From Candidatus Multivoradales bacterium (GTDB taxonomy: Bacteria > Acidobacteriota > Thermoanaerobaculia > Multivoradales > JAHEKO01): a stretch of DNA of 64,000 nt. Below are positions 708 through 44,626 of the stretch, piece after piece (the first letter of the stretch is position 1; each line of letters begins with the position of its first letter). The position numbers were made by a program, and so were the translations under genes. The stretch is from contig CBDCXM010000008.1 of assembly GCA_965223855.1 (NCBI GenBank), forward strand, positions 672,001 to 736,000, read 5' to 3'. The notes under the pieces were generated by a model. It did not search any database, was not told the DNA's origin, and saw only the letters and a program-made list of their open reading frames with translations.

Positions 708-734
708 GAGCTAGTGACGGTCGTCCTCGCGCGT
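708..734 (+). promoter_or_regulatory. Putative ECF-type promoter GAGCT-N17-CGCGT
   Basis: Matches the recurring motif; ~65 nt before ATG 799. Confidence 0.6.
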
Positions 735-798
735 TCTTCCGAGACCGTGGGTGCCAACTCACCCACGGTCGGCACCACGAAACGAGAGAGGAAAGGCG

Positions 799-2307
799 AT
801 GAAAAAACGACGAACCGAGGCCGGAAGACTCATCGCAGCGACATGCCTGCTGCTCGTTCACGGCCTCCACGCTTCACCGCCGAAGTCGGCGACCCTGGAA
901 TCGGAATCGTCGGGGACAGACTTCGAGGCTCCCATCGAGACCAGAGAGCAGGAACTGGGTAGCAACTTTGTCCAGATCGTCAACGACGCAGGGGCCAAGG
1001 GCGAGCAGATGGAGCTGCTGCGTGACACCTTCGACGCCGCCCTCCTGGAAGACGACTCCTTGGACCGGCTCAGGCAGGCCCTGACCTACATGCACGAGGA
1101 GTTCGCGCCCCTGAAGTTCCAGAATGCCGAGCTGGTCGAATGGAAGACTCCTTCTGGCGTCCAGAGAAAGCTTCACACGTTCGCGCTCGATGAGCGGAGG
1201 AAACAGTGGAAGAACATTCAAATGGACGTCAGCGACGAGGCCATCCCTCGGATCACCGGCATCAGCTTCGTCGCCGACGTGTCAGAGCCGGTCTACCTAC
1301 CCGCCGGTGACATCCGGCATGAGATCGAGTGGTTGGACACCTACGTGAACAAGCTGATTCGCGAGGACGACCTTTTCGGCAGCCTTGTCATCGTCGAAGA
1401 GGGGAAGGTGCTCTACGAGCGCTACTTCGGCTTCGAGGATGCTCGCCGTAGCCGCCCTATCAGCGAGGCCACGCGTTTCAACATGGCTTCTGGAGGGAAG
1501 ATGTTTGCAGGCGTGGCGATCGCTCAGCTTGTCGAGGAAGGCAAGCTGGAGTGGAGTGCTTCGGTCAGTCGATACATTCCGGGCGTCGCGGAGGATCTCC
1601 AAGTACGCCATCTGCTCAATCACTCCGCCGGTATCTCGAACTACTGGACGGAGGAGAATGAACAGCGAATGGCCTCTGCGACAGACCCTCAGCAGGAGTT
1701 TCTGGAACTCGCACTCGAAGCCGGAACAGACTTCGAACCCGGAACAGCAGTCCGCTACTCGAACTCGAACTTCATTCTGGCAGGCCATGTGGTCGAGGCA
1801 GCCAGCGGCCGAGACTACTTCGACTACGTCCGCTCGGAGATCCTGGAACCCTCGGGCATGACGCACACACTCCTCTCAGTCGAGGATGACTTCTCGCGAG
1901 ACGTTGCCGAGGCCCTGCGGGGGGAGCCGTTCAAGTGGGAGCGAATCGACTTCAATCCCCGGCCAACGTCTGCAGGTGGCTCGTACACAACGGGCCGAGA
2001 CATGGTCAGATTCTCTCAGGCGCTGACCAACGGCGCCCTCCTCTCGGGAGAAATGCTCGACGTCATTTCAACGAGCACGCTGGCCGGCGTGCCCGACGCC
2101 CTGGACGACTTCGGATACGGCTTTCAGCTCAGTACTCAGGGGCAAACCGACTTCTTCGGCCACGGCGGGCTCGCTCGTGGAGTCAACTTCGGCTTCGAGA
2201 TTGTCAGGGCCAGGGATCTCACGCTGGTCATGTTCTCGAACCAGGACAACGGAGCCTTCGACGATCTCAAGAAGAATGTCATGAAACTCATCTCCGGCTT
2301 CCGCTGA
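799..2307 (+). CDS. Secreted serine hydrolase (beta-lactamase class C/PBP-like)
   Basis: Signal peptide MKKRR...; SGGK, LLNHSAG, YSN and HGG motifs; purine-rich RBS before ATG 799. Confidence 0.85.
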   Translation: MKKRRTEAGRLIAATCLLLVHGLHASPPKSATLESESSGTDFEAPIETREQELGSNFVQIVNDAGAKGEQMELLRDTFDAALLEDDSLDRLRQALTYMHEEFAPLKFQNAELVEWKTPSGVQRKLHTFALDERRKQWKNIQMDVSDEAIPRITGISFVADVSEPVYLPAGDIRHEIEWLDTYVNKLIREDDLFGSLVIVEEGKVLYERYFGFEDARRSRPISEATRFNMASGGKMFAGVAIAQLVEEGKLEWSASVSRYIPGVAEDLQVRHLLNHSAGISNYWTEENEQRMASATDPQQEFLELALEAGTDFEPGTAVRYSNSNFILAGHVVEAASGRDYFDYVRSEILEPSGMTHTLLSVEDDFSRDVAEALRGEPFKWERIDFNPRPTSAGGSYTTGRDMVRFSQALTNGALLSGEMLDVISTSTLAGVPDALDDFGYGFQLSTQGQTDFFGHGGLARGVNFGFEIVRARDLTLVMFSNQDNGAFDDLKKNVMKLISGFR

Positions 2308-2410
2308 TAGCTGCCCTACGCGACTTTAGAGGCGCGGAGACAGCTCAACCTCTCGAAGTCTCGGATCGACGGACAACAAGCTCAGCGCTTCGGCAGGTGG
2401 TGTGAGCAGG

Positions 2411-3839
2411 TCAGAAGGGCTGAGAGCAGAGTGCCTTTGGCCTTCGAATCCCGCAGGTGGTCAACGGCACATGCTCGTAGGCAAGGATCGCCTCGAGAGC
2501 AGGGTCGCGATTGTGTTTGTAGTCAGAGAAGCTCAGGGGCGTCAACAAGTCGGGCGTCGTTGCGTCCCGGTCTTCGAACGGCTCGGGTAGAGAGTTCTGC
2601 CAGTACATGGTCGATGTGTGCACCGCCAGCCGGCTATGAGGCAATCGTGACCCCCGATTGTCAGCAAAGTGGTTCGGACTACCGCCCGTCTGCTCACCAA
2701 CGAAAACGGCGTTCGTCCAGGTCTCGAGGAGGGTGACGAGATGACTGCCCGCCGAGAACGTCCGGCGACCGATGATCACGAAAAGTCTCCCCGGCCGATC
2801 CAGGAGGGGGTCTGAGAGGATGCCCCGAACGAGATCCTTGTTCAGAGTGTTGTCGCCGCCTCCGTGTAGCCTGAGGTCGATGACCAATCGAGCGTCGAGA
2901 CGATCGACGTCTCGAAGGACTCTGGCGAAGAAATTGCTCATGGACTCTCGCTCGTGATTCTCGTTTCGAGTGATCTGGGTGTAGACAATGTTGGAGTCCT
3001 CGAGATACGCCGACCAATAGTGCTTCGGCGCCTTGCGAAACCAGAGGCTCGGCGGGTGCCTGAGCCATAGCGGTGCTGGGGCATTCTCGTCCCTCGCGGT
3101 GAGGAAGCCGACTGCGGTTGCTGCAAGCTCGTGGTCGAAACGGAGATCTGCCATGCTCGGGAGAGCCTCCGTTGCCACAGACTGGAAACGAACGTCTGTC
3201 GACACTGCCCCAGCCGGACCGGCGAGAGTCAACGTAGCTTCGTCGGAACGTGCTGTGATCCCGAGAGCAAACAGCACCTCAGCTGTGGTCATCAGACGAG
3301 GGACGGTATCGAGCAAGGTCGCAGCGTTGTCCCTCGGAGCGATCTCACTCACACGGCGGAAGACCTCCTCGACGTCAGTCCCATCGATCTCGAGAACTCG
3401 TCTGCCGAGCGCCTCCGCCTGCTCCCGGGCCACTCCGATCACGTACCAACCATCAGAGAACCGATAGATCGCTACAGGGAAGCGGCTGAACCCAGTGTGT
3501 CCGTTGACGATCCCGGGATAGAGCCAGAGCGCGGTGTGGCCGTCGCCAAGAAGCGCCATGAGGCGGGCCAGCTCCACGACCACTTCGTTATCCGAGAGGG
3601 AGGGAATCCTCCGGTCCAAGTCCCTCACCGCATCGTCGAAATCCTCCTCGGTGATCGTGTGGAACGGGTCGATGTGCCGCTCCAGGACCTTCTCACGCAG
3701 AGGCTGCCAGGTCCTCCCGCCACTGATCGGGCGAAAGCCGAATCTGGCCGCAAAGCGAACCGGGAAAAATCGAAAGAAGCACGGCGGCAACCAGGATCGG
3801 GCCTGTCCGCAGCCTCAGCAAACTCAACGGTGTTGGCAT
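2411..3839 (-). pseudogene. S41-family peptidase-like gene with a frameshift near 3705
   Basis: Signal peptide plus QWREDL in one frame (3839-3693); LGDGHT, DLRLHGGG, TFSAGS and GEQTGG in the 2411-3790 frame. Confidence 0.7.
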
Positions 3840-3906
3840 CTCTGGAGTCTCCTCGAACTCTGACTCGCCGGTATCGACGCTGGTCGGGCGACGGGCTCTG
3901 AGTGGA

Positions 3907-3934
3907 ACGCGGACCCAACAGGTGGAAGTGCTCA
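3907..3934 (-). promoter_or_regulatory. Putative promoter TGAGCA-N17-CGCGT
   Basis: Motif match ~68 nt before ATG 3839. Confidence 0.6.
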
Positions 3935-5410: not shown

Positions 5411-5437
5411 ACGCGCGGCGTGTCGGGAGGGATGCTC
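5411..5437 (-). promoter_or_regulatory. Putative promoter GAGCA-N17-CGCGT
   Basis: Motif match oriented toward the 4128-5270 gene. Confidence 0.55.
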
Positions 5438-9739: not shown

Positions 9740-9767
9740 CCGCGCAAAGCGGGTCGGTTGAATCTCA
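9740..9767 (-). promoter_or_regulatory. Putative promoter TGAGAT-N17-CGCGG
   Basis: Motif match facing the GT2 gene; one of a divergent pair. Confidence 0.55.
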
Positions 9768-9801: not shown

Positions 9802-9829
9802 TGAGCCGGTCGGCACGGCAAAACCGCGA
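9802..9829 (+). promoter_or_regulatory. Putative promoter TGAGCC-N17-CGCGA
   Basis: Motif match 50 nt before the sulfotransferase start. Confidence 0.55.
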
Positions 9830-9878: not shown

Positions 9879-10835
9879 GTGGTAGGACGACGTCCCAACT
9901 TCTTTCTGGTCGGCGCGATCAAGTCCGGGACGACCTCGATGCACCGATTCCTGGGCCGGCACCCCGACATCTACATGTCACCCCGGAAGGAACCCACCTT
10001 CTTCGGCTCGGACCTCAGCGCCCGAGGGTTCGTTCGAGACGAAAGAGAGTACCTTCGTCTGTTCGAAGGAGCGACTTGCGAGAAGGTGGTCGGCGAGGCG
10101 TCCCCCTGGTACCTGTTCTCACGGCGAGCAGCCTACGAGATTCGGCAGTTCGAGCCGGCCGCCAGGATCCTGATCCTGCTGCGGAACCCCGTCGACGTCA
10201 TGTACGCCGCTCACGGTCAGCAGGTCTACAACCTCAACGAGCCGCTAGCCTGCTTCAGAGCAGCGCTAGCCGCCGAGCGCACGCGGAAGGCCCTACTTGG
10301 CTCTCCTTCCGACAGCAGCTACCTCCCCGAGGGGCTGCTGTACCGCGAGGTTGTTCACTTCTCCGAGCAAGTAGCTCGCTACTTCGATGCATTCTCGAGG
10401 AGCCAGGTCTTGGTCGTCCGCTTCGACGAAGTCGTCAGCACCCCGGAGCCGACTCTCCGCAGGGTTCTGCGTTTCCTCGACGTGGACTCGCAACATGCTC
10501 GAACGAGCTTTCCGGTCGCGAACGCTCGCAAGCGACTGAGGAGCCCGTGGCTTCAACGCCAGTTGAACAACCCTCCGCCCGGGTTGGCCAGCACCCTCAG
10601 ACAACTGCTCAGCCGACGCCTGAGAAGAGGACTCGCCGGCCTGCTGAGATGGCTGAACACTCGAGCCGGTCGTCCGCCTCTGGAAACTCCTACCCGACAC
10701 GAACTGCTTCGAGAGTTCTCTGCCGAGATCGACAGACTCGCATCGCTGACCGGCATAGATCTTGGAGATTGGGGCCATGAGTCCATGCACCGCCCCTCGA
10801 CAGGCTCCGCGGGACGCGGAACGGGTTCGGTTTGA
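9879..10835 (+). CDS. PAPS-dependent sulfotransferase
   Basis: GAIKSGTTS 5'-PSB loop, KEPTFF, GEASPWY, LLRNPVD. Confidence 0.9.
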   Translation: MVGRRPNFFLVGAIKSGTTSMHRFLGRHPDIYMSPRKEPTFFGSDLSARGFVRDEREYLRLFEGATCEKVVGEASPWYLFSRRAAYEIRQFEPAARILILLRNPVDVMYAAHGQQVYNLNEPLACFRAALAAERTRKALLGSPSDSSYLPEGLLYREVVHFSEQVARYFDAFSRSQVLVVRFDEVVSTPEPTLRRVLRFLDVDSQHARTSFPVANARKRLRSPWLQRQLNNPPPGLASTLRQLLSRRLRRGLAGLLRWLNTRAGRPPLETPTRHELLREFSAEIDRLASLTGIDLGDWGHESMHRPSTGSAGRGTGSV

Positions 10836-11890
10836 ACACTCCGCATCGGCGTACTGTCGCCGTCTTCTCGAGGAGAGGCACGCCGAAGAGCGTCGAGATC
10901 TATGCTGACCAGATCTGTCGCCACCTCGAGGCCATGAACTGGAAGATTCTCGGTCTTTCAGCCGACCGGGGAGTGCCGGAAGAAGCCGACCTCGCCTGGT
11001 TTCCCGGTTCAACCGGGGCGTTGCTGCCACCCCTCAGGATGCTCTGCAGCTCCAGGCCTCGAATCGTGACCCTTCACGGCGCCGCGCCCCTGACCCTTGC
11101 CGCCCGCGAGTGTTTCCCGAACTCCCGGAAGCTGGCGGCCGGCATCATCCGCCACGAGGTTCGCCGCCTCGTGTGGCGCCTCCCGCGCCTCAGAGCCACT
11201 CGGGTGATCACCGTGTCGAACTTTGCCAGGCAAGAGCTGGTCGAAGCCCTGAGTCTGCCGAGGGAGCACATTTCCCCGATCTATCACGGCATCGACAGGC
11301 GAGTCTTCTACCCGAGCCTCTCCCACAACCCTGAGCAACCGTACTTTCTGCATGTGAGTACCTACCAGCCGCTGAAGAACCTGGAACGGCTCGTTGAAGC
11401 ACACCAGACCTGCCAATTCACCAAGCCGGTCAAGCTTCTGCTGATTGCATCGGGCCTTCCCAGGTCCCTTGTCGCCGGCACGACCGACGTCGAGTACATC
11501 GATGAGAGTCTCTCGCAGGAACGACTTGCCCACTACTACCGCTCAGCGGTCGCCTTCGTGTTCCCTTCTCTGCGTGAGAGCTTCGGCATGCCCCTGCTCG
11601 AAGCGATGGCCAGTGGATGCCCGGTCCTGACGTCGCGCGGCTCCGGCTGCGAGGAGGTTGTCGGCGGAGCCGCGACGCTCGTCGATCCTCGCTCGATACC
11701 GGAGATTCGTGCCGGCCTGCTGCGCCTCGCGCGCTCGAGGACCTACAGATCGAGCCTTGCGGCCAAGGGTATCTCGAGGGCTGTGAAGTTTTCTTGGAGG
11801 CGAAGCGCTTCCCAACACAGCGAGTTGTTCTCTCAGCTCGTTGATCGGGGGGCGGACCGTCAAGGCTACAGGGACCGAAGCCGCTCGTAG
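10832..11890 (+). CDS. Glycosyltransferase family 4
   Basis: FPSLRESFGMPLLEAMASG motif. Confidence 0.9.
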   Translation: MNTPHRRTVAVFSRRGTPKSVEIYADQICRHLEAMNWKILGLSADRGVPEEADLAWFPGSTGALLPPLRMLCSSRPRIVTLHGAAPLTLAARECFPNSRKLAAGIIRHEVRRLVWRLPRLRATRVITVSNFARQELVEALSLPREHISPIYHGIDRRVFYPSLSHNPEQPYFLHVSTYQPLKNLERLVEAHQTCQFTKPVKLLLIASGLPRSLVAGTTDVEYIDESLSQERLAHYYRSAVAFVFPSLRESFGMPLLEAMASGCPVLTSRGSGCEEVVGGAATLVDPRSIPEIRAGLLRLARSRTYRSSLAAKGISRAVKFSWRRSASQHSELFSQLVDRGADRQGYRDRSRS

Positions 11891-15535: not shown

Positions 15536-15562
15536 GCGCGCAGGGCACTGAGCTGCTGGCTC
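15536..15562 (-). promoter_or_regulatory. Putative promoter GAGCC-N17-CGCGC
   Basis: Motif match immediately before GTG 15523. Confidence 0.45.
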
Positions 15563-15566
15563 GAGC

Positions 15567-17576
15567 TTGCGGCGTTGCCAGACGCACGCATCTCGATGGC
15601 AGCTTCGATCAGCAGAGCTACCCGGAGCGAATCCCTCGGCACATGAGGTACGCGTGAGAGACGCGAGTTCAGAGTCAACGGCGACCGCCGCCAACGCGAC
15701 GAGCTCCAGGCCGAGGCTCTCGGTTCCCGCGCCATCAGCAGGTGCCGGCTTGGCCCACCGTCCGTCCTTCATTCGGCTACTGCATCCGACCAAGCTTGCC
15801 GTGCTGGCTCTTGTCGTCGCCCTCGCCGCTCTAGCCCGCTTCCACGGGCTTGAGGAGAGGGGAACCGACGGTAGCGACACCATCTACTACACAAACCTCG
15901 CTCTTTCGTGGGCCGAGGGAAGCCGGACCGTCGCCGTTCCCGGGCAGCAGCCCGTCCATCGCCCGGCCCTGCTGCTCACCTTCGCCGCCGCCATCCACCT
16001 GCTCGGCTTCGAAGACTCCTCAATCAAGACCGTCGTCGCCGCATTCGACACAGCAAACGTCCTTCTCGTCTTTGTGCTCGCGCTGAGCATCTGCAGGAAC
16101 TTCTGGACCGCCCTGGTGCCGACCGCCCTCTACGCCAGCCTTCCGATAGCCATCATGATGGCGCGGCTCGAGCTCGCCCACGCTGTTTCGACCACACCGG
16201 TCCTGGTAGCCACCCTGCTCTTCCTCGCCAGCTTCCGAGTGGGGAAGCCTGCATGGATGGGAGTTGCTCTGTGCGGCGCATCGGGCGTTGGGTTGGGTTG
16301 GGCGGCGCTGTGCCACGAGGATCTTCTGTTCGCAGCCGCGGGGCTGGGCCTCTATGCCCTGTTCGCCAGCTCATCCCCTCTTGGCGCCTGGGCTCGACCT
16401 GCGAGGGAAGCCGCAAGTCTGAGAATTCTCGCCCTTCTTGTCGGTCTCGTCGTTACTGCCTACAACCCCATCGAACGCGGCTTCGTCCGCGTCGTTCGCC
16501 CGGCTCGCCTCGTGGAGAGCTCGACGTCTACGGAGGCCTTCTTTCAGTGGCTGCAGGCTCTGGTGGACTACACCGAGCGACTCTCCAGATTCCTGTGGAA
16601 CGCCACGCTCGCGACAACTTCCTCTGTCGTCGTCGGCGCCGTTGGCCTGATTTCGGCTCTGTTGATCCTGAGGTACTGCTTCCGCCTCTACGGCCGCAGA
16701 GGACCCTCGACGCCCTGTGAGTACCATTTGCCCATCTTCGTCGTCGTCGGATACATGGCTGCCTACTGTCTGACGCTCGACTTCTTCCTCTCCCGCGTGT
16801 TTCTTCCGCTAGTGCCACTCCTCTTGATCTGGATCTCGGCGTGGACACACGAACTCAGCCGTTGCCTGGGCACGCGACTTTCGGCGCTGCTTCTGATCGC
16901 GCTCACCGCCGGCGCCGGCGTTTCCAACCTCCACGCGTTCTCAAGAACGACAAATCTCCTTCATCGCACTTCACTGGACGCATGGATCCCCCTTCTAGGC
17001 CCCGAAGCAGGTCTCGCAACCGGTGCACGACTCTTCAAGTCGTTCGTCTACAACACGGTTCCACCCAGGCAGCTCTTCGACGCGCTGGCGGATCGAGTCA
17101 ACTCAGAGGCGAAGGTCCTCATCACCCCGAGCATCCTGCTGCCTTATCCAGGGAGGAGGGTCTTCCAACTCGGGTACTACTTCGGGGACAACGCCGTCTA
17201 TGTGATCGATCATGAAGAGCCGATACATGAGCTGATCGCTCGGAAGAACATCCGCTTCGTCCTCTTCTCGTCACTGGGGCATCGACCGAGCTTCATGTCC
17301 AAGCACTTCTTCACGCGGTACGAGTACGACGAGCGTTGGAATCGTCGACAGCGCCTTCGCCTTGGTCGGAGCTACGGCTTCGCGAGCCGGAACTACAGCG
17401 TGGACCAGGAATATGCGTACTTGAGACACTTCGTGCTCTCAGTCGGTGGGCGTGTCGTGCACCTCAACGGTAGAGCAACTCCGCCGACTCGGCCTGCACC
17501 AGAGACACCGCCGTGGACGATCGTATTCGAACTCCCTCAGGTCCCGGCACTCGAGGGTGCGCGCGACCCACGCTAG
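15567..17576 (+). CDS. GT-C/ArnT-PMT-like membrane glycosyltransferase; start uncertain
   Basis: First TM followed by GSDTIYY and HRP; multiple TM helices; glycan locus context. Confidence 0.65.
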   Translation: MRRCQTHASRWQLRSAELPGANPSAHEVRVRDASSESTATAANATSSRPRLSVPAPSAGAGLAHRPSFIRLLHPTKLAVLALVVALAALARFHGLEERGTDGSDTIYYTNLALSWAEGSRTVAVPGQQPVHRPALLLTFAAAIHLLGFEDSSIKTVVAAFDTANVLLVFVLALSICRNFWTALVPTALYASLPIAIMMARLELAHAVSTTPVLVATLLFLASFRVGKPAWMGVALCGASGVGLGWAALCHEDLLFAAAGLGLYALFASSSPLGAWARPAREAASLRILALLVGLVVTAYNPIERGFVRVVRPARLVESSTSTEAFFQWLQALVDYTERLSRFLWNATLATTSSVVVGAVGLISALLILRYCFRLYGRRGPSTPCEYHLPIFVVVGYMAAYCLTLDFFLSRVFLPLVPLLLIWISAWTHELSRCLGTRLSALLLIALTAGAGVSNLHAFSRTTNLLHRTSLDAWIPLLGPEAGLATGARLFKSFVYNTVPPRQLFDALADRVNSEAKVLITPSILLPYPGRRVFQLGYYFGDNAVYVIDHEEPIHELIARKNIRFVLFSSLGHRPSFMSKHFFTRYEYDERWNRRQRLRLGRSYGFASRNYSVDQEYAYLRHFVLSVGGRVVHLNGRATPPTRPAPETPPWTIVFELPQVPALEGARDPR

Positions 17577-17768: not shown

Positions 17769-17796
17769 TGAGACCTCCAGGAGCAACGTTGCGCGT
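17769..17796 (+). promoter_or_regulatory. Putative promoter TGAGAC-N17-CGCGT
   Basis: Motif match 94 nt before ATG 17890. Confidence 0.6.
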
Positions 17797-17889: not shown

Positions 17890-18741
17890 ATGTACCCCGA
17901 GCGAACGACCTCTGAGCCGACCACCAGCCGCATCAGCGAACTACCCAGCCTTCCGCATTCCGATTGCGGCGTGGCCGCAACCACTTTCGGGCCCAGACGG
18001 ACCCAGCAGCTACGAGCTTCCGTCAGGGCCAGCGTCGTGGGAGCCCTGGTACTCCTGCTCCTGGCATGCTCCTCGTCCACCCCGAGCGAACCTCCCCCTC
18101 CTGATGAGCCGACGGCAGAGGAGATTCTGGAAGCTCTGTTCTTGGGTACGGGGGCGGCTGCGGCCAGCACCTGCCCTCATCCCGTCGGTCAATGGAACAC
18201 CTACCAGCGTGGAGCGACGGTGGTACTTCGAATCGCGCCGTCCGTGGGCCCAGCCGACCGAGCGGTCCTCGAAGAACAAATCGCAGTCCTCAACGGAGCA
18301 TTGATGGGGACCCTCAATCTGATCACTCAGAGCACGACGGACCCGGATCCTCGCCCGGGACCGCTCGAGATCACGACTGCGGACTTCCCGTTCGAGGAGC
18401 TGCAAGCTCGCTGCGGAGGCGGGCTGTCCCGCAACGGGTGCATCCTTTGCGACGCCTCCACCTATCCCCTCCTATCCTCATGCCGGCTCTACCAGAACCC
18501 GGAGGCCAATGCGCGTCCGGGCACGATTCATGTCCACGAACTCGGCCACGCCATCGGCCTGTGCCATCTTGCCGGGGAGAGACTTCCCAACGCGGTGATG
18601 GCCTCTCCCAATCGATCGACCTCCAACAGTTTCACCGAGGCCGAGCTGCAGGCGATTCAGCTCGTCTTCGCCAATCCAGCGTTGGAGGCAGGTTCCACGA
18701 GAGCCGACTTCGTCTCAGCCGGCCTCCTCTCGCCCCTCTGA
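17890..18741 (+). CDS. Metzincin (matrixin-like) metalloprotease lipoprotein
   Basis: Lipobox LLAC; HELGHAIGLCH and AVM Met-turn. Confidence 0.8.
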   Translation: MYPERTTSEPTTSRISELPSLPHSDCGVAATTFGPRRTQQLRASVRASVVGALVLLLLACSSSTPSEPPPPDEPTAEEILEALFLGTGAAAASTCPHPVGQWNTYQRGATVVLRIAPSVGPADRAVLEEQIAVLNGALMGTLNLITQSTTDPDPRPGPLEITTADFPFEELQARCGGGLSRNGCILCDASTYPLLSSCRLYQNPEANARPGTIHVHELGHAIGLCHLAGERLPNAVMASPNRSTSNSFTEAELQAIQLVFANPALEAGSTRADFVSAGLLSPL

Positions 18742-20275: not shown

Positions 20276-20303
20276 TGAGCGCCCAGCCAGACTCCACCCG
20301 CGC
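20276..20303 (+). promoter_or_regulatory. Putative promoter TGAGCG-N17-CGCGC
   Basis: Motif match 32 nt before ATG 20335. Confidence 0.55.
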
Positions 20304-26800: not shown

Positions 26801-26881
26801 CTCATCTCTCTCCGATGCCGGTAGGTCCAGCGCCGCCTGGAAAAGCTCCTCGAGCTGACGCCAACTGCTGTCGAGAGGCAC
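23876..26881 (-). CDS. Membrane Hanks-type Ser/Thr kinase with extracytoplasmic TPR array
   Basis: GRGGMGVVY, VAIK, HRDIKPSN, DFG, TPEYASPE; one TM segment; long TPR-like helical repeats. Confidence 0.92.
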   Translation of the reverse strand: MPLDSSWRQLEELFQAALDLPASERDEFLVDQCADDVALLAEVRALVSTAERAVGWLEGSAEEAATAKAAPTEVAGYQVEGEIGRGGMGVVYAARGAHGLVAIKILDLPLEAEGARRRFLDEQEILGRLEHPHIAKMLAAGELSDGRPYLVMELVDGIPIDDYCELKGLTVEERLRLVEPVCRAVHHSHQNLVIHRDIKPSNVLVTREGSPKLLDFGIAKRLEPDVEPTQTGEARMTPEYASPEQLRGEASTTASDVFSLGVLLHHLVTGQARGHRGSGEARLSRPSDSVASESAVDLPKCGVGRRRLVRQLRGDVDTIVLAATEPAPGARYPSAEALAADISRFLNGLPLRTRRRSLIYVVSRSARAHPVASVLVAGLALSVLLFVPLLLLEVQRKARALDEAAAQTKRARASTDYVVSLIARADPVSPLGEGVSAQEIVEAGASKLESQLDELPAELAADLSLALGRAFVGLGEYEEARRFLSRSVAAFEERGSVGALVDALRWMAELDRTVGRLAQAREQLERSFQLVEASGSDEALMIADLQLVLGRVEAAEGNLAEAHALHLSALEARRQIAGEHSLELADALFALGETEVQRGEYLEAKGLFEDCVSIRVDLLPHDHLLVGRARLVLGTSLRLLGEFGAAEQELSRAVEILETKIGEDSYELAVGLDHLAKVFASRGQLDRAEPLFRRSLEIVDREVGESPRLGDQLHNLAVLLDLQGRHTEATEFYQRAIRTYETTLGVGSESVASALHNLGTLQLEEGLLEAARPNLEKALDLRISLLGHAHPRSAMTWAAIADLEFLSGRWKEAVQLAEEAAVVLAKAAPDHPDLAYALRTGGMARLADGRGREAEPLLRRALEIRSAALEDLNGEVVQSKVDWARVNLSLGRSAEAAAILRPVIEGQEVEALPIELAVQLAAAHILATDLEDPDSEWTDPERRSESALGFLQTSGATGLEADRVRALALARAGRSDEAWLLARAILDRGVADSRLSDLEPD

Positions 26882-27370: not shown

Positions 27371-27397
27371 GAGTCATCCGCAGCCTCGAGGCCGCGT
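27371..27397 (+). promoter_or_regulatory. Putative promoter GAGTC-N17-CGCGT of peptide cluster 2
   Basis: Motif match 62 nt before ATG 27459; downstream TGTCGGGAGTGCCCA resembles cluster 1 TGTCAGGAGCGCCCA. Confidence 0.65.
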
Positions 27398-27458: not shown

Positions 27459-27515
27459 ATGAGAGTCAGAACCAACCTGCCGGCTGGCGAGTCCACAGTC
27501 GCCATCCTCGGCTAG
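27459..27515 (+). CDS. Small peptide precursor MRVRTNLPAG-ESTVAILG, class I
   Basis: AAGGGAGG RBS 6 nt before ATG; family leader. Confidence 0.8.
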   Translation: MRVRTNLPAGESTVAILG

Positions 27516-27603: not shown

Positions 27604-27654
27604 GTGAAGGCAAGAACCAACGTAGTCGCCGGCGCCAGTCCATGGCTTGAGTAG
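27604..27654 (+). CDS. Small peptide precursor MKARTNVVAG-ASPWLE, class II
   Basis: AAAGGAGGTG RBS before GTG; family leader. Confidence 0.85.
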   Translation: MKARTNVVAGASPWLE

Positions 27655-27890: not shown

Positions 27891-27918
27891 TGAGTTCCTC
27901 CCAGTCTCTCTCGCGCGT
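27891..27918 (+). promoter_or_regulatory. Putative promoter TGAGTT-N17-CGCGT
   Basis: Motif match 74 nt before ATG 27992. Confidence 0.6.
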
Positions 27919-27991: not shown

Positions 27992-28975
27992 ATGATCCTG
28001 CCAGCCAGGAAAGTCGCCAGTCTGGTCGCCGTAGCGGCCCTTGCAAGCATCACCAGTCTCGGTGCCGACTCTGAGCCGCGAGCCGAGACCGTCGTCCTCT
28101 TCGATCCTCAAGCGCTGGAAACGCCCGAGAGCATCGTCTTCGACAGCCTGGACAACGCCTACATCACACTCGCATTGACCGGCCAGGTAGTGAGAGTCTC
28201 CCAGGATGGTCGCCTGACCCTTGTCACCGAGCTGCCCATCGGGGCTCCCTGTGGTTCGGTACCGACCCTGGCTGCCGGGTTGGCCGTCGATGACAACGAT
28301 CGGCTTTTCGCAGCCGTCTCGGCATGCGACCCTGCGAACTCCGGCATCTGGGAGATCGATACCGGAACCGGCGAACACTGGCTGGTTGCCGTCGCCCCTT
28401 CCTCCGTCGCGATTCTCAACGGCCTGGACGTTCACGGCGACTATCTCTACGCCGCAGACTCCCTGGCAGGCCTCGTGTGGAGAGTGTCCACCTCGGGCGG
28501 TTCGTTCGAGGTCTGGGTAGACGACCCGCTCCTCAAGATCAGGCCGGGTTCGCCCTTTCCGGGTCCCAACGGGCTCCAGTACTACAGAGGTAGCGTCTAC
28601 GTGGCGAACTCGTCGACAGGCGCCATCGTGAGGCTTCCTATTGGGAATCACGGATCTTCGGGAGAAGCCACCGTTCACGTGTCGGCATTTCCTCTAGGCT
28701 GCGACGAGTTCACGTTCGATGTCCTGGGTCGCATCTACTGCGCCACCGGACCCTTCAACAAGGTGCTGCGCCTGACCCCGGGCGATGTCCCATCGACCGT
28801 TCTCGATGCCGGTGACCTGCTCGACGTCCCCACCTCGGTGGCTTTCGGACGACGCGGGCGGAACAAGAGGTTTCTCTACATCGCCAACGCCGCCTTCCCG
28901 TTCGCCACTCAGCAGTTTCGGCCCAGCCTGATGAGGCTGCCCGTGGACATCCCGGGGGATCCTCGGGAGTACTGA
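27992..28975 (+). CDS. Secreted SMP-30/gluconolactonase-like beta-propeller
   Basis: AAGGAG RBS; signal peptide; PESI, NGL, GPNGL, DEFTFD blade motifs. Confidence 0.8.
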   Translation: MILPARKVASLVAVAALASITSLGADSEPRAETVVLFDPQALETPESIVFDSLDNAYITLALTGQVVRVSQDGRLTLVTELPIGAPCGSVPTLAAGLAVDDNDRLFAAVSACDPANSGIWEIDTGTGEHWLVAVAPSSVAILNGLDVHGDYLYAADSLAGLVWRVSTSGGSFEVWVDDPLLKIRPGSPFPGPNGLQYYRGSVYVANSSTGAIVRLPIGNHGSSGEATVHVSAFPLGCDEFTFDVLGRIYCATGPFNKVLRLTPGDVPSTVLDAGDLLDVPTSVAFGRRGRNKRFLYIANAAFPFATQQFRPSLMRLPVDIPGDPREY

Positions 28976-30794: not shown

Positions 30795-30822
30795 TGAGTC
30801 AAGAGTCTGGGCGTTCTCGCGT
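30795..30822 (+). promoter_or_regulatory. Putative promoter TGAGTC-N17-CGCGT
   Basis: Motif match upstream of 30966. Confidence 0.6.
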
Positions 30823-30965: not shown

Positions 30966-32075
30966 ATGCAATCGGATCGACACACCTGGATTCTCGCTGG
31001 CAGGCTCTGTCGCGCCAGATTGTTCTTCGCAACAGTTGTGCTGGCAGGCCACTTCTCTACCCTCGAGTTGGCCGCCGCAGAATACTCCGTTCGAATCGCA
31101 CCGCCACCGATCGCCGGAGGCGCATCGGTGTTTCCGACCGGCCTCAACAACCAGGGAGAAGTCGTCGGGCAGTTTCAGTCCGGATCGCCTCTCCTGCTGA
31201 AGGGGTGGCACTGGCGACCCGATGGGACGGTCGAGGTGATACCGGCTCCGCCAGGTCTGAGCAGCTACCGAGCCATGGGCATCAACGACTCAGGTTTCAT
31301 CCTGGGCGATGGAGGGTTGTCCTGGGGACTGGCCTGGGTCCTCTCTCCCGACGGAGTTTTCACGTCGGTCGGAACCCTTCCCGGGGACTCGATGAGTCTC
31401 GCCGCAGCGATCAACGAGGACGGAGTAGTGGCTGGAACCTCACGCAGCCCATCTCACACTTCTCCTCGCACCTCCTTCGTCGCCACTCCTGGCCTGCCCC
31501 CGGACCCACTTCAGGGCCAGAGTGAAGCCACAGATCTGAGCAACAGCGGTTTCACGATCGGCTACTACACGTCGCAGACCGGCTTCAGGGTGTCCCCAGG
31601 CGGGGAAACACTGCTACTCCCGCGCATCGACGGGCGATCATTCTCATGGCCCTGGGGCGTCAACTCCGAGGGTTGCACGGTCGGCGGGACAGCCTTCGCC
31701 AACGGAAACGGACACATTCCGTTTCTCTACTGTGACGATCTCGGAACCGTTCCCGTCGGCACGTTCACGGGAGGGGCGAGCGCGGCAGACATCAATGACG
31801 ACCGCACCATCATCGGCAATCTGAGTTCGGGCGGACCGCACCCGTGGATCTGGGACCTCGACCTGGGGATCCGATTTCTGGAGGATCTGATCCCGCCCGA
31901 CGCTGGCGTTGCGCTCCAGTCCGTCCTGAAGATCAACGAACGAGGAGATATTCTCGGCCTCGCCATCCTTCAGGATAGTGGCGACTGGGCACCCGTCGTA
32001 CTGGAATCGACCGCCATCTTCGCGGACGGCTTCGAATCAGGCGACGCCTCTCGTTGGAGCGAGGCCGTTCAATGA
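30966..32075 (+). CDS. Secreted HAF-like repeat protein with C-terminal IFADGFESGD motif
   Basis: Repeated [AG][ILV]N[DEN]xGxxxG units; tail AIFADGFESGDASRWS. Confidence 0.8.
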   Translation: MQSDRHTWILAGRLCRARLFFATVVLAGHFSTLELAAAEYSVRIAPPPIAGGASVFPTGLNNQGEVVGQFQSGSPLLLKGWHWRPDGTVEVIPAPPGLSSYRAMGINDSGFILGDGGLSWGLAWVLSPDGVFTSVGTLPGDSMSLAAAINEDGVVAGTSRSPSHTSPRTSFVATPGLPPDPLQGQSEATDLSNSGFTIGYYTSQTGFRVSPGGETLLLPRIDGRSFSWPWGVNSEGCTVGGTAFANGNGHIPFLYCDDLGTVPVGTFTGGASAADINDDRTIIGNLSSGGPHPWIWDLDLGIRFLEDLIPPDAGVALQSVLKINERGDILGLAILQDSGDWAPVVLESTAIFADGFESGDASRWSEAVQ

Positions 32076-35928: not shown

Positions 35929-35955
35929 GAGCCGCTGTCCAGGCCTACCTCGCGA
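35929..35955 (+). promoter_or_regulatory. Putative promoter GAGCC-N17-CGCGA
   Basis: Motif match 82 nt before ATG 36037. Confidence 0.5.
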
Positions 35956-36036: not shown

Positions 36037-37218
36037 ATGAAGACACTCGAACGTTCCCCCATCGCCCGAAGGACGAGGCCGGCAACAGCTCTGCTGGTCC
36101 TTCTCGGCTTGTGCTTCGCGAGTTCGCCGGAGCTCGCCCTCGGCGCGGAGCCTTGTTCGGCTGGTGTTGTCGGCAACATCCACCTGAGATGCAGAACCTA
36201 CTCTCAGGTCTACCACGCACTGCCTTGCGGAGTGACGGGTATCGACCACCCCACCTGCGGTGACTACGACTGGGATCCGCAACTGGGCTGTCAGTTCGGA
36301 ATCGGAGACTACCTGGACCCCGATCAGATCTTGGTCGAGTGGTGGGCCGACCAGTCGTGCCCGTCGTTGCAGCCCAACGAGGACTGGTGCTTCGAGATGT
36401 GGGCCTCACTCACGCCCTGCGGACCTCCCGAATCGCCCGAGGACCCTGATTGCCCCGATCCGGTGGCCAGCGGTGTTTGCCAATTCAACTGCCAAGGGCT
36501 CAGCGCACAGGAGGCAGGCCTCCCTCGCTCGAAATCCTCTCGGGTGCCCCACGACTCCCACCTCTCCGACGGTCAACTACGGCAGGCCGGCCTCTCGTAC
36601 GCCGCGGGCTTGGACACCGCCGGTCGAACCGGCTCACAACCGGAGAGCCTGATCGCGGAACTTTGGAACGAGCAGTGCCGCGCGATCGTCCTGATGCCCG
36701 AAGAGTGGCAAGGCGATCCCTGGACCGCAGCTCGAGGGTTCTTCACGATCGGACGAACCTTCCCCCCGGAGGCGCTGGGCTGGCCCGGCGAAGGAGCCGG
36801 GTACGGTGTGCACGATGCTCTGCTGGAGGGGCAGCTCGGTCCGCTCGTCCTGTCTCCGGCGGGCGCCTCGCCCTTGTGGGGTGGTGAAGGCGGAAGAATC
36901 GACACGGACTGGGAGGCTCTCAAGGAAGCTGATCTTTGCATCAACTCCAACGCACTGCTGGCGTCGCCCTACTGGAAGATGATGCAAGGAGGGTTTCAGC
37001 GCAGAAGGGCGTTGGTGCGCTGCCAGGGGAACTCGGCCAGCAACGGCATGGACCTCTACTTCCATTCCTCGAACAGCGAAGAGGATTGGAAGGAGTCGGG
37101 CGCTCTCGCCAGCGAGGTCCGGGGGCAGCTCGAGGAGGTTCGCCGAAGCGGCCTTGTTCCAGTCTGTGTGACCGCCGAGTTGGCGGAGCTACGTCGAACG
37201 GCGCGCTCCGGACGCTAG
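36037..37218 (+). CDS. Secreted hypothetical protein with a Cys-rich N-terminal domain
   Basis: GAAGGGAAG RBS; signal peptide ending ALG-A; dense Cys in the first ~130 mature residues. Confidence 0.7.
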   Translation: MKTLERSPIARRTRPATALLVLLGLCFASSPELALGAEPCSAGVVGNIHLRCRTYSQVYHALPCGVTGIDHPTCGDYDWDPQLGCQFGIGDYLDPDQILVEWWADQSCPSLQPNEDWCFEMWASLTPCGPPESPEDPDCPDPVASGVCQFNCQGLSAQEAGLPRSKSSRVPHDSHLSDGQLRQAGLSYAAGLDTAGRTGSQPESLIAELWNEQCRAIVLMPEEWQGDPWTAARGFFTIGRTFPPEALGWPGEGAGYGVHDALLEGQLGPLVLSPAGASPLWGGEGGRIDTDWEALKEADLCINSNALLASPYWKMMQGGFQRRRALVRCQGNSASNGMDLYFHSSNSEEDWKESGALASEVRGQLEEVRRSGLVPVCVTAELAELRRTARSGR

Positions 37219-39981: not shown

Positions 39982-40279
39982 CGACCCGGCCTCTGAAAGT
40001 GGAAGAAGGGATTAGCCATCGCAAGAAGTAGGTCGGGTAGCAGGGAGCCGAATCTGATCTGCTCAGTGTCTTGGTATCTGCCAGCAGGAGACCTGCTACC
40101 ACCAACCGTCTCGATGGCCTGGATGGTCTGCCCTACTCGCTTGAGCGCTACGGGTTCCTCGTCGTTCCTGCCCCTGTGCCGGCCTCGGCGTTTGCTACCT
40201 TCTTCCTTGACTGGAACGCGCGAATCTGACCGGGACTGGCCCAAACCTGACGCTTGCTTCCCTCCTGGCTCGTTAGTTG

Positions 40280-41429: not shown

Positions 41430-41715
41430 AGCGCTACAGCGATGACCGTCGCCGTTGCTTCAACGGGCGCGCAGAGCGCCGATGCTGAGCCCCGCCCTAG
41501 ATATGTCTCGCGTCCTCGTTGCGGGTGCCGCGCAAGTGAGTGCAAACCTAGGTGTGGAGTCTCAAGACGTTGTTCGGTAGCTGGTTCCCATCTCCTGAGA
41601 GTGGACCTTTCGCCTTCTTTCTCCTAGCTCGAGGCACCCCCTCCAACTTCTAGTTGGAGCCTAATCGCTATCGACGGTTGGAACGAGTCCTGCACCCTGA
41701 TCGCGGTGCGAACGA

Positions 41716-41743
41716 TGAGTTGAGAATGCGGGATTTGGCGCGT
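41716..41743 (+). promoter_or_regulatory. Putative promoter TGAGTT-N17-CGCGT
   Basis: Motif match; continues CGCGTACCT exactly as at peptide cluster 1. Confidence 0.6.
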
Positions 41744-41865
41744 ACCTACTGGAGCCTACGACACGCAGAACGTGGAGGTTCTGCTCTGGCGCACGAGACG
41801 TAGGCGACCCGGCAAGCACGTCGAACAGAACCGGATCCTACCGAATCACAAGAAAGGTGCTCGAC

Positions 41866-42270
41866 ATGAATCGGAAGCGTCGCGTAGGTGCTCTCGTCGT
41901 TGCCACAATGCTACTTCTTGGCGGCCAGCTCTATGCACTGGACCCCAACGGCTGCGCAGACCCCAACCACGATGACGACGACGACAAACCTCATCTTTGC
42001 GCCCTTCCAGGGGCCTGCCAGCCGGGCGACCTGATTGGCGAGCGGTGGAGCCACTTTGGATACCAGCGGTCCGGGGAGACCTGGGTCGAGTGCGGCATCC
42101 AGGGTTGCCGCGGCATCATTCGATGCGTCTGCAATGGAGCAACAAGCTATGTAGCGACCCCCTTCAAGAACTTCGTTTCGTGCGACCCAGCGGAGGAGAC
42201 CTGCAAGGCAGCTGACTATCCGCCTAGCTGGGGGACGCCAGCCACTCCAGCGGCCTGTCCACCGTGCTAG
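41866..42270 (+). CDS. Small secreted Cys-rich protein (11 Cys), paralog 1
   Basis: AAAGGTG RBS; signal peptide; CADPNHDDD..PHLCALPG motif. Confidence 0.8.
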   Translation: MNRKRRVGALVVATMLLLGGQLYALDPNGCADPNHDDDDDKPHLCALPGACQPGDLIGERWSHFGYQRSGETWVECGIQGCRGIIRCVCNGATSYVATPFKNFVSCDPAEETCKAADYPPSWGTPATPAACPPC

Positions 42271-42444
42271 ATGTTCGGGCTCCACAGTCGCGGCATCGAC
42301 GGCCTCTGCCAGGGAGAAGCGGTCCTCTAGCAGGACCGGGCTTTTGGCTTGCCCCGTTGAGCGCGCGCGGAGTTCCTCTTTCCTCACCCACTCGACGCTC
42401 GAGCGATCCCCTACGGGGCTCTTGAAGTGAGCGCCCGGCGCCAA

Positions 42445-42472
42445 TGAGCCACTTGCAACAGCGTTCGCGCGC
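42445..42472 (+). promoter_or_regulatory. Putative promoter TGAGCC-N17-CGCGC
   Basis: Motif match 95 nt before ATG 42567. Confidence 0.55.
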
Positions 42473-42566: not shown

Positions 42567-43004
42567 ATGAGAAGCATAGCAATCAAAAGAAGCCTTCGTT
42601 TCGGAATTATTCTTCTTGCTCTCACGGTGGCCCCCGCACCTGCCGGGGCGGCTGATTCGAATCCGTGCGCAGACCCGAACCACGATGACGACACCGATGC
42701 CCCCCACCTTTGCGCGCTGCCAGGGACTTGCCTTCCCGGGGACATCGTAGGCGATCGCTTCGGTCATTCCGGCGTTGGCGTCTCAGGCCTGACCAGAATC
42801 AGATGCGACCCAGGAGGCTGTCGGGGGCGTATTCAATGTCAGACTTGCGCTGGGACGACGTACCATCGCTATACCCCTCTGAAGAACTACGTGATCTGCA
42901 CGTCCGAAGCGGGCAATCAGTCAACCTGCAAGGCGAGCGACTATCCGGTATCTTGGAATGCTGGTGTAACGACTGTTGCCTGCTACGAAGAAGTTTGTCC
43001 CTAG
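42567..43004 (+). CDS. Small secreted Cys-rich protein (11 Cys), paralog 2
   Basis: GAAAGG RBS; signal peptide; same Cys scaffold as 41866-42270. Confidence 0.8.
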   Translation: MRSIAIKRSLRFGIILLALTVAPAPAGAADSNPCADPNHDDDTDAPHLCALPGTCLPGDIVGDRFGHSGVGVSGLTRIRCDPGGCRGRIQCQTCAGTTYHRYTPLKNYVICTSEAGNQSTCKASDYPVSWNAGVTTVACYEEVCP

Positions 43005-43612: not shown

Positions 43613-43795
43613 CGCCGGCCGAGACAGGCTCAAGCGAGCCCAACCGGGAACCAGCGGCAAATCGTCGATCGCCAGTGTCTTGACCTGCTGAGGCCCGGCC
43701 ACGAGCAAGCTCGAGGTCGCTCGAGTTCATTCGACGCGAGGAACGAGGCCACATCCGGCGAGACGGCGACTTGCGTCTGTCGTCGCCACCCGACT

Positions 43796-43820
43796 ATTCA
43801 CCCGGAAGCTCTCTTCGGGA
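43796..43820 (+). repeat. Third REP-like hairpin unit
   Basis: ATTCACCCGGAAGCTCTCTTCGGGA, related to the 41361 and 41400 copies. Confidence 0.55.
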
Positions 43821-44044
43821 AGCTATCTTCGGGTCTGAGACGGCGACTGAATACCGGGCGCGCTGTGCGCGAGCCCCTCAGCATCCGTCTCACTTCCGAG
43901 CGGCAGCGACTTCCGAGTGTCTCGTTCCAACTAGGCAGCGGCGCAAGCCTCGACGGAAGAAGGGGTGGTCGATTCCGGCTCTCGGTCCCATGTGCCTACG
44001 CTGCAACCCTGCCGTAGCCGTCTGCGGCGCGCCGCTCCATCCGC

Positions 44045-44542
44045 CTATTGAGGAGGCATCGCTGGACCGCAACGATAGGTTACCTGGCTGTAGTTGGCCC
44101 GCTGACACGAAACCTCCTGCCCTTCGGCATAGGCCTCCACACCCTCGCAGGTGATTGGAGATGCGTCGTTGGGGCAGTTGGCCCAAGCCTTGGCTGCCGG
44201 TTCAGAACCTCCGTCTGTCCACGTCATCCATTGGTCGCTCCACCGTCTGCCGAAGCAAGCCGTCAACGTTGGTGCGTCAGCAAGATTCACGGAGTGACAG
44301 GGCTCGTCTGTAGGGTTGTCGACCATCCCGCCCTCCTCGTCGATGCCAGGGTTGTCGGGGCCGGTTCGCGGATGGCTCCGTGCTCCGGCGTGGGGCATCC
44401 AATGAGGGCATTCGTCGTCGAAAACGGGCTCGACTTGCGCTTCAAGACTCAACCCGCAGAGAAGGGCTGCTAGTAGCGCAAGCGCCGCGGCCCAGAGTAG
44501 CCGGTGTCGGCCGAGATCAGGTGAGTTGGCATCCTGCTTCAC
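44045..44542 (-). CDS. Small secreted Cys-containing protein
   Basis: AAAGGAG RBS before GTG; signal peptide ending LEA-Q; 7 Cys in the mature part. Confidence 0.7.
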   Translation of the reverse strand: MKQDANSPDLGRHRLLWAAALALLAALLCGLSLEAQVEPVFDDECPHWMPHAGARSHPRTGPDNPGIDEEGGMVDNPTDEPCHSVNLADAPTLTACFGRRWSDQWMTWTDGGSEPAAKAWANCPNDASPITCEGVEAYAEGQEVSCQRANYSQVTYRCGPAMPPQ

Positions 44543-44598
44543 GGGAACTCCTTTGGACGGGGTGACGGTCGAGACTCGCTCGGGGTGCTACATGAAGA

Positions 44599-44626
44599 CC
44601 GCGAGGGAACTGCGTTCGTTGACTCA
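44599..44626 (-). promoter_or_regulatory. Putative promoter TGAGTC-N17-CGCGG
   Basis: Motif match 57 nt before GTG 44542. Confidence 0.6.

Follow-up and report, generated by a model that had tools for sequence, protein, structure and literature searches.

A spacing-specific TGAG/CGCG motif as a candidate sigma factor promoter across a low-GC island of a Multivoradales genome

The DNA analysed here, referred to as the window, is a 64,000-nucleotide stretch from the genome of a Candidatus Multivoradales bacterium (Acidobacteriota, Thermoanaerobaculia; assembly GCA_965223855.1, 4.52 Mb in 9 contigs), corresponding to positions 672001-736000 of contig CBDCXM010000008.1 (C8), and the element in question is a two-block motif, TGAG and CGCG at a fixed distance, which recurs upstream of its genes. 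The contigs of this assembly have a G+C content of 65-68%, whereas the window from position 1 to ~58,000 has only 61-65%, no other stretch of consecutive low-GC 10-kb bins in the genome being as long. This island extends over window positions 1-58300 (C8:672001-730300; ~58 kb, G+C 4-6% under that of the genome), and its left end may lie before the start of the window. Non-coding DNA makes up 23% of the island against 9% genome-wide. There are no tRNA genes within the island, and no integrase was seen among the proteins scanned. Genes were called with a purpose-written, crude two-model periodic-Markov caller (3,562 genes covering 90.8% of the genome), on which all intergenic figures given below depend, with the exception of pattern counts made over the whole window.

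Two genes coding for sigma factors of the extracytoplasmic function (ECF) type are found in the island, ECF1 (23140-23766, minus strand) and ECF2 (52667-53278, plus strand), both matching PF07638 (174.6 and 155.3 bits, respectively, for a cut-off of 21.1) and TIGR02999 (194.4 and 181.8 bits for a cut-off of 126.15). The two proteins are 49% identical and come out as sisters among 36 sigma sequences (support 97/93). A Hanks kinase gene adjoins each of them. STK1 (23876-26881, -), next to ECF1, codes for a protein of 1001 amino acids (aa) that is predicted to cross the membrane once (residues 367-396) and whose C-terminal TPR domain (~600 aa) would lie outside the cytoplasm. STK2 (53250-54266, +) overlaps the end of ECF2 and codes for 338 aa that consist of a kinase domain only, no membrane span or sensor having been found in it; its open reading frame (ORF) also overlaps a convergent LysR-family gene (54252-55139). 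Proteins of the kinase-TPR type, similar to STK1, have undergone a large expansion in this order: of 41 genomes (this one and 40 relatives), 40 give 18-49 matches each and the remaining one gives 2. No STK1 ortholog was found among the 40 relatives, the best match being 37-38% identical over a long alignment.

The STK1-ECF1 operon is flanked by mirror-image groups of very short genes. On one side lie mini-peptide genes A1 (22774-22830, -; 18 aa, leader MKVKTNVKAG), B1a (22623-22673, -; 16 aa) and B1b (22492-22542, -; 16 aa, with a doubtful start, CTG standing at the start position), and on the other A2 (27459-27515, +; 18 aa) and B2 (27604-27654, +; 16 aa). With A3 (46204-46260, -; 18 aa, TTG start), all six copies of this family in the genome are located in the island. 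Upstream of A3 on the same strand is an operon for a HlyD-family adaptor (51074-52216, -), a C39-peptidase ATP-binding cassette (ABC) exporter (PCAT; 48493-51021, -; PF03412 plus ABC domains) and a second ABC exporter subunit (46436-48496, -).

The initial annotation of this stretch, made by eye, had reported a motif (T)GAGnn-N17-CGCG before 16 transcription units. All 16 sites are present, with a T as the preceding base in 11 of them (the coordinates then given are 0-1 nt lower than ours, and most take in the base preceding GAG). Whether the motif is enriched depends on how it is counted. Over the whole window, the loose pattern is not in excess: GAG-N19-CGCG gives 44 matches where shuffled sequences give 42.56 +/- 6.46 (42 of 100 shuffles reach 44), and TGAG-N19-CGCGT with one mismatch allowed gives 32 for 30.15 expected. 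Enrichment does hold between genes, as 26 of the 44 matches are intergenic while non-coding DNA represents 23.4% of the window, and it holds at a single spacing, the numbers of intergenic GAG/CGCG matches being 5, 7, 8 and 8 at N15 to N18 and 9, 4, 8 and 4 at N20 to N23. The exact 17-nt spacer of the annotation is thus borne out, TGAGnn-N17-CGCG being the only spacing enriched. The exact pattern TGAG-N19-CGCGT, whose count needs no gene calls, is found 9 times for 1.05 expected, a number reached in none of 100 shuffles, and all 9 sites are intergenic.

A dyad scan blind to the previously noted motif covered all pairs of 4-mers separated by N12 to N23 in 30 intergenic segments totalling 14,838 bp, with both strands considered. 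Its top-ranking dyad is TGAG-N19-CGCG, along with the reverse complement (16 for 1.17 expected; p 1.9e-13, Bonferroni p 1.5e-7 over 786,432 tests). Conservation in the 26 intergenic matches also extends to positions that had not been selected for, 16 of them having T at -1, 20 having C at +28 and 16 having T at +29. Spacer positions do not exceed 0.26 bit; as the spacers are unconserved while the flanks are conserved, the sites did not arise by copying of a repeat. Refinement leads to the consensus cTGAG(C/T)C-N17-CGCGT(T/C)CT. A division of the sites into two promoter subclasses, CGCGT(T/C)C(C/T)T and CGCG(T/A)ACCT, one for each sigma factor, was considered and dropped, the classes not sorting by type of target.

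The excess is a property of the island. Genome-wide, intergenic TGAG-Nx-CGCG matches number 26, 37, 28, 55, 23, 32 and 28 for N16 to N22, of which the window holds 1, 4, 1, 16, 0, 1 and 1, so that most of the genome-wide N19 excess falls in the island, between C8:675,900 and 729,991. A position weight matrix (PWM) that ignores the spacer scores 16 or more at 19 intergenic and 1 coding positions in the island, a count that is circular because the matrix was trained on island sites; the corresponding count in the other 4.46 Mb, which is not circular, is 2 intergenic and 18 coding matches. The best intergenic matches outside the island (C9:1294368, 83130, 105331, 1075648 and others) have no convincing gene downstream, and we take them as chance matches rather than as regulon members beyond the island. 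Nine strong PF07638 matches and about 15 weaker ECF-like matches are encoded in the genome, and the seven strong PF07638 loci other than ECF1 and ECF2 have neither clustered sites nor peptide genes nearby.

The geometry of the sites is consistent with a promoter. A co-oriented start codon follows 13-263 nt downstream at 23 of 26 candidate sites; of the 13-145 nt given in the initial annotation, the lower bound stands and the upper one has to be extended. All eight sites located between genes of the same direction (708+, 3908-, 17770+, 20277+, 30796+, 35929+, 46350- and 57999-) point with these genes (binomial p 0.004, our own count), and two divergent regions contain back-to-back pairs of sites (9741-/9803+ and 52438+/52480-). 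The -10 hexamer of sigma-70 type promoters is nearly absent: in the 24 x 170 nt surrounding the sites, TANNNT is found 3 times, at no fixed offset. The 10 nt 3' of CGCG are AT-richer (0.44-0.52 against ~0.35), and an A is present at +32, 7 nt past CGCG, in 13 of 24 sites. Two blocks, a strict spacing, a defined orientation and no sigma-70 -10 element fit a self-sufficient promoter for an alternative sigma factor better than they fit an activator site.

The candidate sites precede a wide range of genes. Putative targets include three beta-lactamase-fold proteins, an S41 peptidase, an M10-like protein, a TAP-like alpha/beta hydrolase, an SGL-like protein, a 1062-aa beta-propeller protein, several signal-peptide-bearing Cys-rich proteins, a sulfatase-like membrane protein, operons for glycosyltransferases (GT), sulfotransferases and flippases, the operon for HlyD, the C39-peptidase ABC exporter and the second ABC protein, a CAAX protease, and the six ORFs of 16-18 aa. 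Sites before the beta-lactamase-fold genes are at 708-733 (+; cGAGCTA-N-CGCGTTCTT, 65 nt before the start codon of gene 799-2307), 5412-5437 (-; 141 nt before gene 5270-4128) and 20277-20302 (+; 32 nt before gene 20335-22017). The S41 peptidase gene (about 3859-2411) has a site 48 nt upstream (3908-3933, -), and that for the M10-like secreted protein (17890-18741) one 94 nt upstream (17770-17795, +). The site at 27892-27917 (+) is 74 nt from the gene for the SGL-like secreted protein (27992-28975), which is followed by that for the TAP-like hydrolase, and the site at 30796-30821 (+) is 144 nt from the gene for a secreted 369-aa protein (30966-32075), followed by that for the beta-propeller protein.

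A 48-aa ORF (~3690-3860, -) with a Shine-Dalgarno sequence and a signal-peptide-like start begins 68 nt past site 3908- and overlaps the start of the 459-aa S41 peptidase ORF in another frame, which could be due to a frameshift, an assembly error or a broken gene.

Glycan genes are preceded by sites at 9741-9766 (-; 109 nt before a GT2/flippase operon, 9631-6988) and, back to back with it, 9803-9828 (+; 110 nt before sulfotransferase/GT4 genes, 9939-11890). Two sites are found before a GT4-GT2-sulfotransferase operon (15523-11866), a weaker one lacking the T at -1 at a distance of 13 nt (15537-15562, -) and a one-mismatch one, TGACTC-N17-CGCGTACCT, at 127 nt (15651-15676, -). The rightmost site, at the island edge, lies 218 nt before a GT4 gene (57780-56590; site 57999-58024, -). 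A one-mismatch site, TGGGCC-N17-CGCGTTCC, is located 235 nt before the gene for the sulfatase-like membrane protein (39981-37465; site 40217-40242, -). A weaker plus-strand match at 15501, TGACCC-N17-CGCGACCT, overlaps the minus-strand site 15537 in the divergent region upstream of a 591-aa membrane protein gene at 15801, for which it may be a promoter.

Sites upstream of genes for Cys-rich proteins are at 35929-35954 (+; aGAGCC, CGCGAATCG, a weaker site 82 nt before the gene for a 393-aa protein, 36037-37218), 41717-41742 (+; 114 nt before that for a secreted 137-aa protein, 41857-42270), 42446-42471 (+; 95 nt before that for its paralog, 42567-43004) and 44600-44625 (-; 57 nt before that for a secreted 165-aa protein, 44542-44045). 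These secreted proteins (36037-37218+, 41857-42270+, 42567-43004+ and 44045-44542-) contain 8-16 Cys and have no family match, and the two paralogs have a CADPNHDDD-rich N-terminal stretch in common; every Cys-rich gene has its own site. Four further sites in this part of the island are less clearly connected to genes. An exact one at 41487-41512 (+) has its nearest called gene 344 nt downstream, two doubtful ones (42364-42389, -, with one mismatch; 43837-43862, +, with an exact core) have no identified gene downstream, and a doubtful one-mismatch site in which CCCG replaces CGCG (44425-44450, -) falls inside or before the Cys-rich gene 44542-44045.

The peptide, exporter and sigma factor genes complete the series. 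Groups A1-B1a-B1b and A2-B2 each have a site at the same distance, 62 nt (22893-22918, - and 27371-27396, +, respectively), and a site at 46350-46375 (-) lies 89 nt before A3 and the CAAX-protease gene (45958-44930). The HlyD-PCAT-ABC operon is preceded by a site at 52480-52505 (-), 263 nt from the start codon or 182 nt from an alternative start, and back to back with it, 203 nt before ECF2, is a variant site, TGGAACT-N16-CGCGTTCTC (52438-52463, +). Ten of these sites were absent from the earlier list, five of them exact (41487+, 43837+, 46350-, 52480- and 57999-) and five with one mismatch (15651-, 40217-, 42364-, 44425- and 52438+). As for the partial matches of that list, the one at 5477 (+; TGATCC-N18-CGCGTAC) is a plausible variant, while the weak ones at 52317- and 46049- do not appear among the PWM matches.

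The motif is not restricted to this genome. ECF1 homologs (39-53% identity) occur in metagenome-assembled genomes (MAGs) of Acidobacteriota and Thermoanaerobaculia and in two of Planctomycetota, and the module repeats in other genomes at loci L004, L005, L008, L121 and L001/L002. At the first four, TGATC(A/G)-N17-CGCGTTA is found 53-60 nt before genes of the MKVKTNVKAG type located by ECF and STK homologs. The order is ECF, STK-TPR, TGATCA-N17-CGCGTTAGGG and, after 57 nt, four tandem peptide genes (MKVKANVKAGGIMLGD and others) at L004; C39-ABC, second ABC, ECF, STK, TGATCG-N17-CGCGTTAAG and four peptides at L005; and TGATCA-N17-CGCGTTAAAG, peptide MKVNSNLKAGQSVGAILE (close to type A of the window), ECF, STK, HlyD, C39-ABC and second ABC at L008. 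At L121 (genome G022), TGATCA-N17-CGCGTTAGGG, peptide, ECF and STK follow each other on one strand, so that the motif there heads the sigma factor's own operon, an arrangement indicative of autoregulation. At L001 and L002, TGA(G/C)CC-N17-CGCGTGTCT precedes the gene for a secreted protein of 133-141 aa and, at L001, a kinase gene as well.

When 185,579 species genomes were searched with the leader in back-translated form, 80 loci were found, mostly from several classes of Acidobacteriota, along with Planctomycetota, Chloroflexota, Myxococcota and a few more. The 158 peptide ORFs of these loci have a near-invariant MKVKTNVKAG(G) followed by a variable tail of 4-15 aa. Upstream of first-in-array peptide genes, TGAnnn-N17-CGC[GC]T is found in 7 of 69 cases, including Blastocatellia, Holophagales and Myxococcota, and the same scan gives no match with spacers of 14-16 or 18-23, 3 with a spacer of 12 and 2 with one of 13. 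Within the 80 loci there are a C39-ABC homolog in 27, a second ABC protein in 23, HlyD in 20, an ECF1-like sigma factor in 8 and a kinase domain in at least 8, or 9 by one tally, all of these counts being lower bounds as the loci span no more than 8 kb. The module of peptide, exporter, sigma factor and kinase recurs in several Acidobacteriota classes; the leader alone is found in Planctomycetota, Chloroflexota and Myxococcota as well.

The mini-peptides form a widespread, uncurated family of 14-25 aa with leader MKVKTNVKAG(G), hypervariable tails and arrays of up to 14 genes. The leader ends in AG or GG after 10-11 residues and lacks the hydrophobic pattern LSxxELxxIxGG, which is the consensus of usual double-glycine leaders, ending in GG, GA or GS. 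A scan of the 5 family members long enough for it (20-41 aa; the peptides of the window are too short) against NCBIfam and Pfam gave no meaningful match, and no mention of the leader was found in the literature searched. That these ORFs are due to chance was rejected in view of their third-position variation, their Shine-Dalgarno sequences and their presence in 80 loci, and a role as ribosome-arrest leaders was judged unlikely, the conserved part being N-terminal and the arrays containing up to 14 genes. At five loci from Blastocatellia and Pyrinomonadaceae (L028, L035, L056, L062 and L084), some precursors have two leader-like units per ORF joined by an NHNQT(V/M) linker; these look like multi-core precursors. 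An identical 16-aa peptide, MKVKTNVKAGQSLWGA, occurs in several MAGs of Bryobacteraceae and Acidobacteriaceae (L034, L040, L068, L078 and L104), where the sequence directly 5' of its genes is a conserved, GC-rich, hairpin-like one and not the TGAG/CGCG motif.

The most plausible explanation of these data, and one that we consider likely, is that the motif is the promoter of an island-specific, kinase-gated ECF regulon read by ECF1 and/or ECF2. The proposal of the initial annotation, an ECF-type promoter regulon dependent on the local sigma factors, thus gains support from the anatomy of the sites, the presence of local ECF genes, the confinement of the motif to the island and its recurrence in other genomes. 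TGAGyc would be the -35 element and CGCGT the -10 element, with transcription starting ~7 nt past CGCG, and RNA polymerase would recognise the promoter when bound to ECF1 and/or ECF2, its sister. Some 20-24 transcription units would then fire together, providing peptides, exporter, CAAX protease, secreted enzymes, Cys-rich proteins and the products of the glycan/sulfotransferase operons.

Control by a kinase is suggested by the type of sigma factor involved. According to reviews, ECF43 sigma factors lack the acidic DAED of region sigma2.2 and carry a Thr instead (consensus QTTA, STTA in EcfP), and they bind core polymerase again once the neighbouring kinase has phosphorylated this Thr (PMC8999054, PMC13147305, PMC8103513). 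The sigma2.2 region of ECF1, LAPTALV, is uncharged with a Thr and fits this description (own alignment, set against the description in the reviews). ECF1 and ECF2 can be termed ECF43-like, a provisional label that relies on the family profile, the kinase neighbour and the description in these reviews. STK1, with its kinase domain predicted in the cytoplasm and its TPR domain outside it, would phosphorylate the Thr in the sigma2.2 region of ECF1 and thereby switch ECF1 on. A cascade can be imagined, although this is speculative, in which phosphorylated ECF1 fires the variant promoter TGGAACT-N16-CGCGTTCTC before ECF2, which would then act without a kinase.

Several observations weigh against this interpretation. 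A search for sequencing runs that contain the stretch returned four, all from one study and none of them of RNA. Three of the 26 candidates (41487+, 42364- and 43837+) have no identified gene within 300 nt, and the intergenic status of the sites was set by the crude gene caller. The sigma2.2 region of ECF2, MEARDLV, has no Thr and keeps two acidic residues, which makes ECF2 a misfit for the ECF43 phospho-switch. Apart from the ECF1-ECF2 pair, the sigma tree is mostly unresolved and the peptide-linked sigma factors do not form one clade (7 changes are needed), and the tree therefore cannot tell which sigma factor reads the motif; the genome has 7 more strong PF07638 paralogs, along with other ECFs, that could read it. 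There is no consensus site before the STK1-ECF1 operon, where a scan for sigma-70 promoters also found nothing, and only the variant with -35 TGGAACT precedes ECF2, so that autoregulation is not shown in the window. Finally, 62 of the 69 first-in-array peptide genes of other loci lack the motif and have differing upstream sequences, which indicates that the promoter is lineage-restricted.

Other explanations have to be weighed against an ECF1- and/or ECF2-dependent promoter. The motif could be the binding site of an activator or repressor, such as the LysR-type regulator encoded at 54252-55139 or an unrecognised island protein; it is, after all, a strongly enriched cis-element whose contact with a sigma factor is putative, and a LysR-family gene does lie in the island. 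We nevertheless consider such a site unlikely. LysR sites are usually dyad-symmetric, whereas the two blocks are asymmetric and strand-specific with respect to genes (8/8 in tandem regions), the spacing tolerates no variation and has the geometry of a -35/-10 pair, there is no sigma-70 -10 element near the sites on which a regulator could act (3 TANNNT in 24 x 170 nt), and the element travels with sigma factor and kinase homologs in other genomes. It seems similarly improbable that the motif is a genuine promoter for an alternative sigma factor encoded outside the island, be it another PF07638 paralog or another ECF. The number of candidates (9 strong PF07638 and ~15 weaker ECF-like matches) and the lack of the motif before the STK1-ECF1 operon speak in favour of this, but the other paralog loci are devoid of clustered sites and peptide genes, the excess of the motif does not extend beyond the island in which ECF1 and ECF2 lie, and in relatives the motif stands beside ECF1/ECF2 homologs, once at the head of their operon. 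That the pattern is a by-product of base composition, search by eye or a dispersed repeat agrees with the chance-level window-wide counts of GAG-N19-CGCG (44 for 42.6) and the one-mismatch extended pattern (32 for 30.15) but is hardly credible for a motif that tops an unbiased dyad scan, is spacer-specific, occurs 9 times for 1.05 in its exact extended form, has spacers unrelated in sequence, and is found in other genomes with N17 only among spacers of 14-23.

The island may be the output of a peptide-signalling, quorum-sensing-like circuit of an undescribed kind, a tentative idea, drawn solely from conserved synteny, that we hold possible rather than probable. The C39-ABC/ABC/HlyD exporter would cut and export the MKVKTNVKAG(G) peptides, the TPR domain of STK1 would sense their tails of 5-8 residues outside the cell and STK1 would phosphorylate ECF1. 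ECF1, followed by the phosphorylation-independent ECF2, would then turn on the peptide genes, the exporter and ~20 enzyme and glycan operons.

Pairing of an ECF sigma factor with a membrane Hanks kinase is known from EcfP/PknT of Vibrio parahaemolyticus and EcfK/PknS of Xanthomonas citri (PMC8999054, PMC13147305, PMC8103513). ECF1 resembles the ECF43 group to which the descriptions in these reviews refer, the DAED of sigma2.2 being replaced by uncharged residues and a Thr (LAPTALV), and in the same way as EcfK controls an adjacent type VI secretion system cluster, the sigma factor here would control the surrounding island. Unlike in the EcfP and EcfK systems, there is a large TPR sensor predicted to be extracytoplasmic, at least 20 candidate promoters fill a 58-kb island, a sister sigma factor (ECF2) has retained acidic residues and is paired with a protein made up of a kinase domain only, and the module is found repeatedly together with mini-peptide genes and a C39-ABC exporter. 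No target promoter for ECF43/TIGR02999 sigma factors was found in the literature searched, and one may exist in the primary EcfP paper (Iyer et al. 2020).

Canonical ECF promoters follow a general AAC/CGT pattern, as in the sigmaW promoter TGAAAC-N16-CGTA. The motif described here shares with them a -35 element beginning with TGA, a rigid 16-17 nt spacer, a -10 element with CG(C/T) and the lack of a TATAAT-like hexamer, but its -35 element is TGAGyc rather than GGAAC/TGAAAC (only the variant upstream of ECF2 reads TGGAACT) and its -10 element is CGCGT followed by a conserved yCT. The ECF sigma factor MibX of the microbisporicin cluster is also situated in the cluster it serves, driving several operons under the control of an anti-sigma factor. 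An ECF gene inside the cluster and a common promoter motif before several operons are features found in both cases, whereas control by a kinase is proposed here, the scale is far larger and the cargo consists mostly of secreted enzymes and glycan genes.

Peptide-pheromone circuits with a C39-peptidase ABC exporter are represented by ComC/ComAB/ComDE of streptococci and by class II bacteriocin regulons. In common with the Com system, the island has short precursors with a conserved leader ending in Gly-Gly or Ala-Gly, a dedicated C39-ABC exporter, a membrane kinase and a transcription factor encoded alongside, and a candidate promoter before the peptide and exporter genes, in what would be a positive-feedback wiring. 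It differs in having a Hanks kinase and an ECF sigma factor where the Com system has a histidine kinase and a response regulator, in the Gram-negative type of envelope, with HlyD and a second ABC protein weakly resembling the NHLP export trio, and in the leader of 10-11 residues without LSxxELxxIxGG, cleavage, export and sensing all being putative here.

The ECF promoter and the ECF43-type kinase/sigma pair are of an already known kind. Within the literature searched, what is new is a concrete promoter consensus for this sigma clade and the scale, a single motif standing upstream of almost all transcription units in a 58-kb island, as well as, judging from comparisons of sequence, a sister sigma factor that appears to lack the phospho-switch and the recurrent coupling to an uncurated family of mini-peptides that are presumably exported.

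ECF sigma factors activated by kinases are numerous in Acidobacteriota and in Planctomycetota. The available portions of the reviews mention only two sigma/kinase pairs of this type as studied and give no target promoter (PMC8999054, PMC13147305, PMC8103513). The island offers a promoter consensus that can be tested and of which about two dozen natural variants exist, and a complete candidate regulon, together with a natural pair of sister sigma factors, one with and one without the residues of the phospho-switch, and its promoters and sigma factors, being compact, could be used as parts for orthogonal expression. The recurrent link with mini-peptides suggests what these kinases may sense and points to peptide signalling in Acidobacteriota, of which we know of no characterised case. 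If the peptide circuit is true, it would achieve the logic of ComABCDE with a eukaryote-like kinase and a sigma factor.

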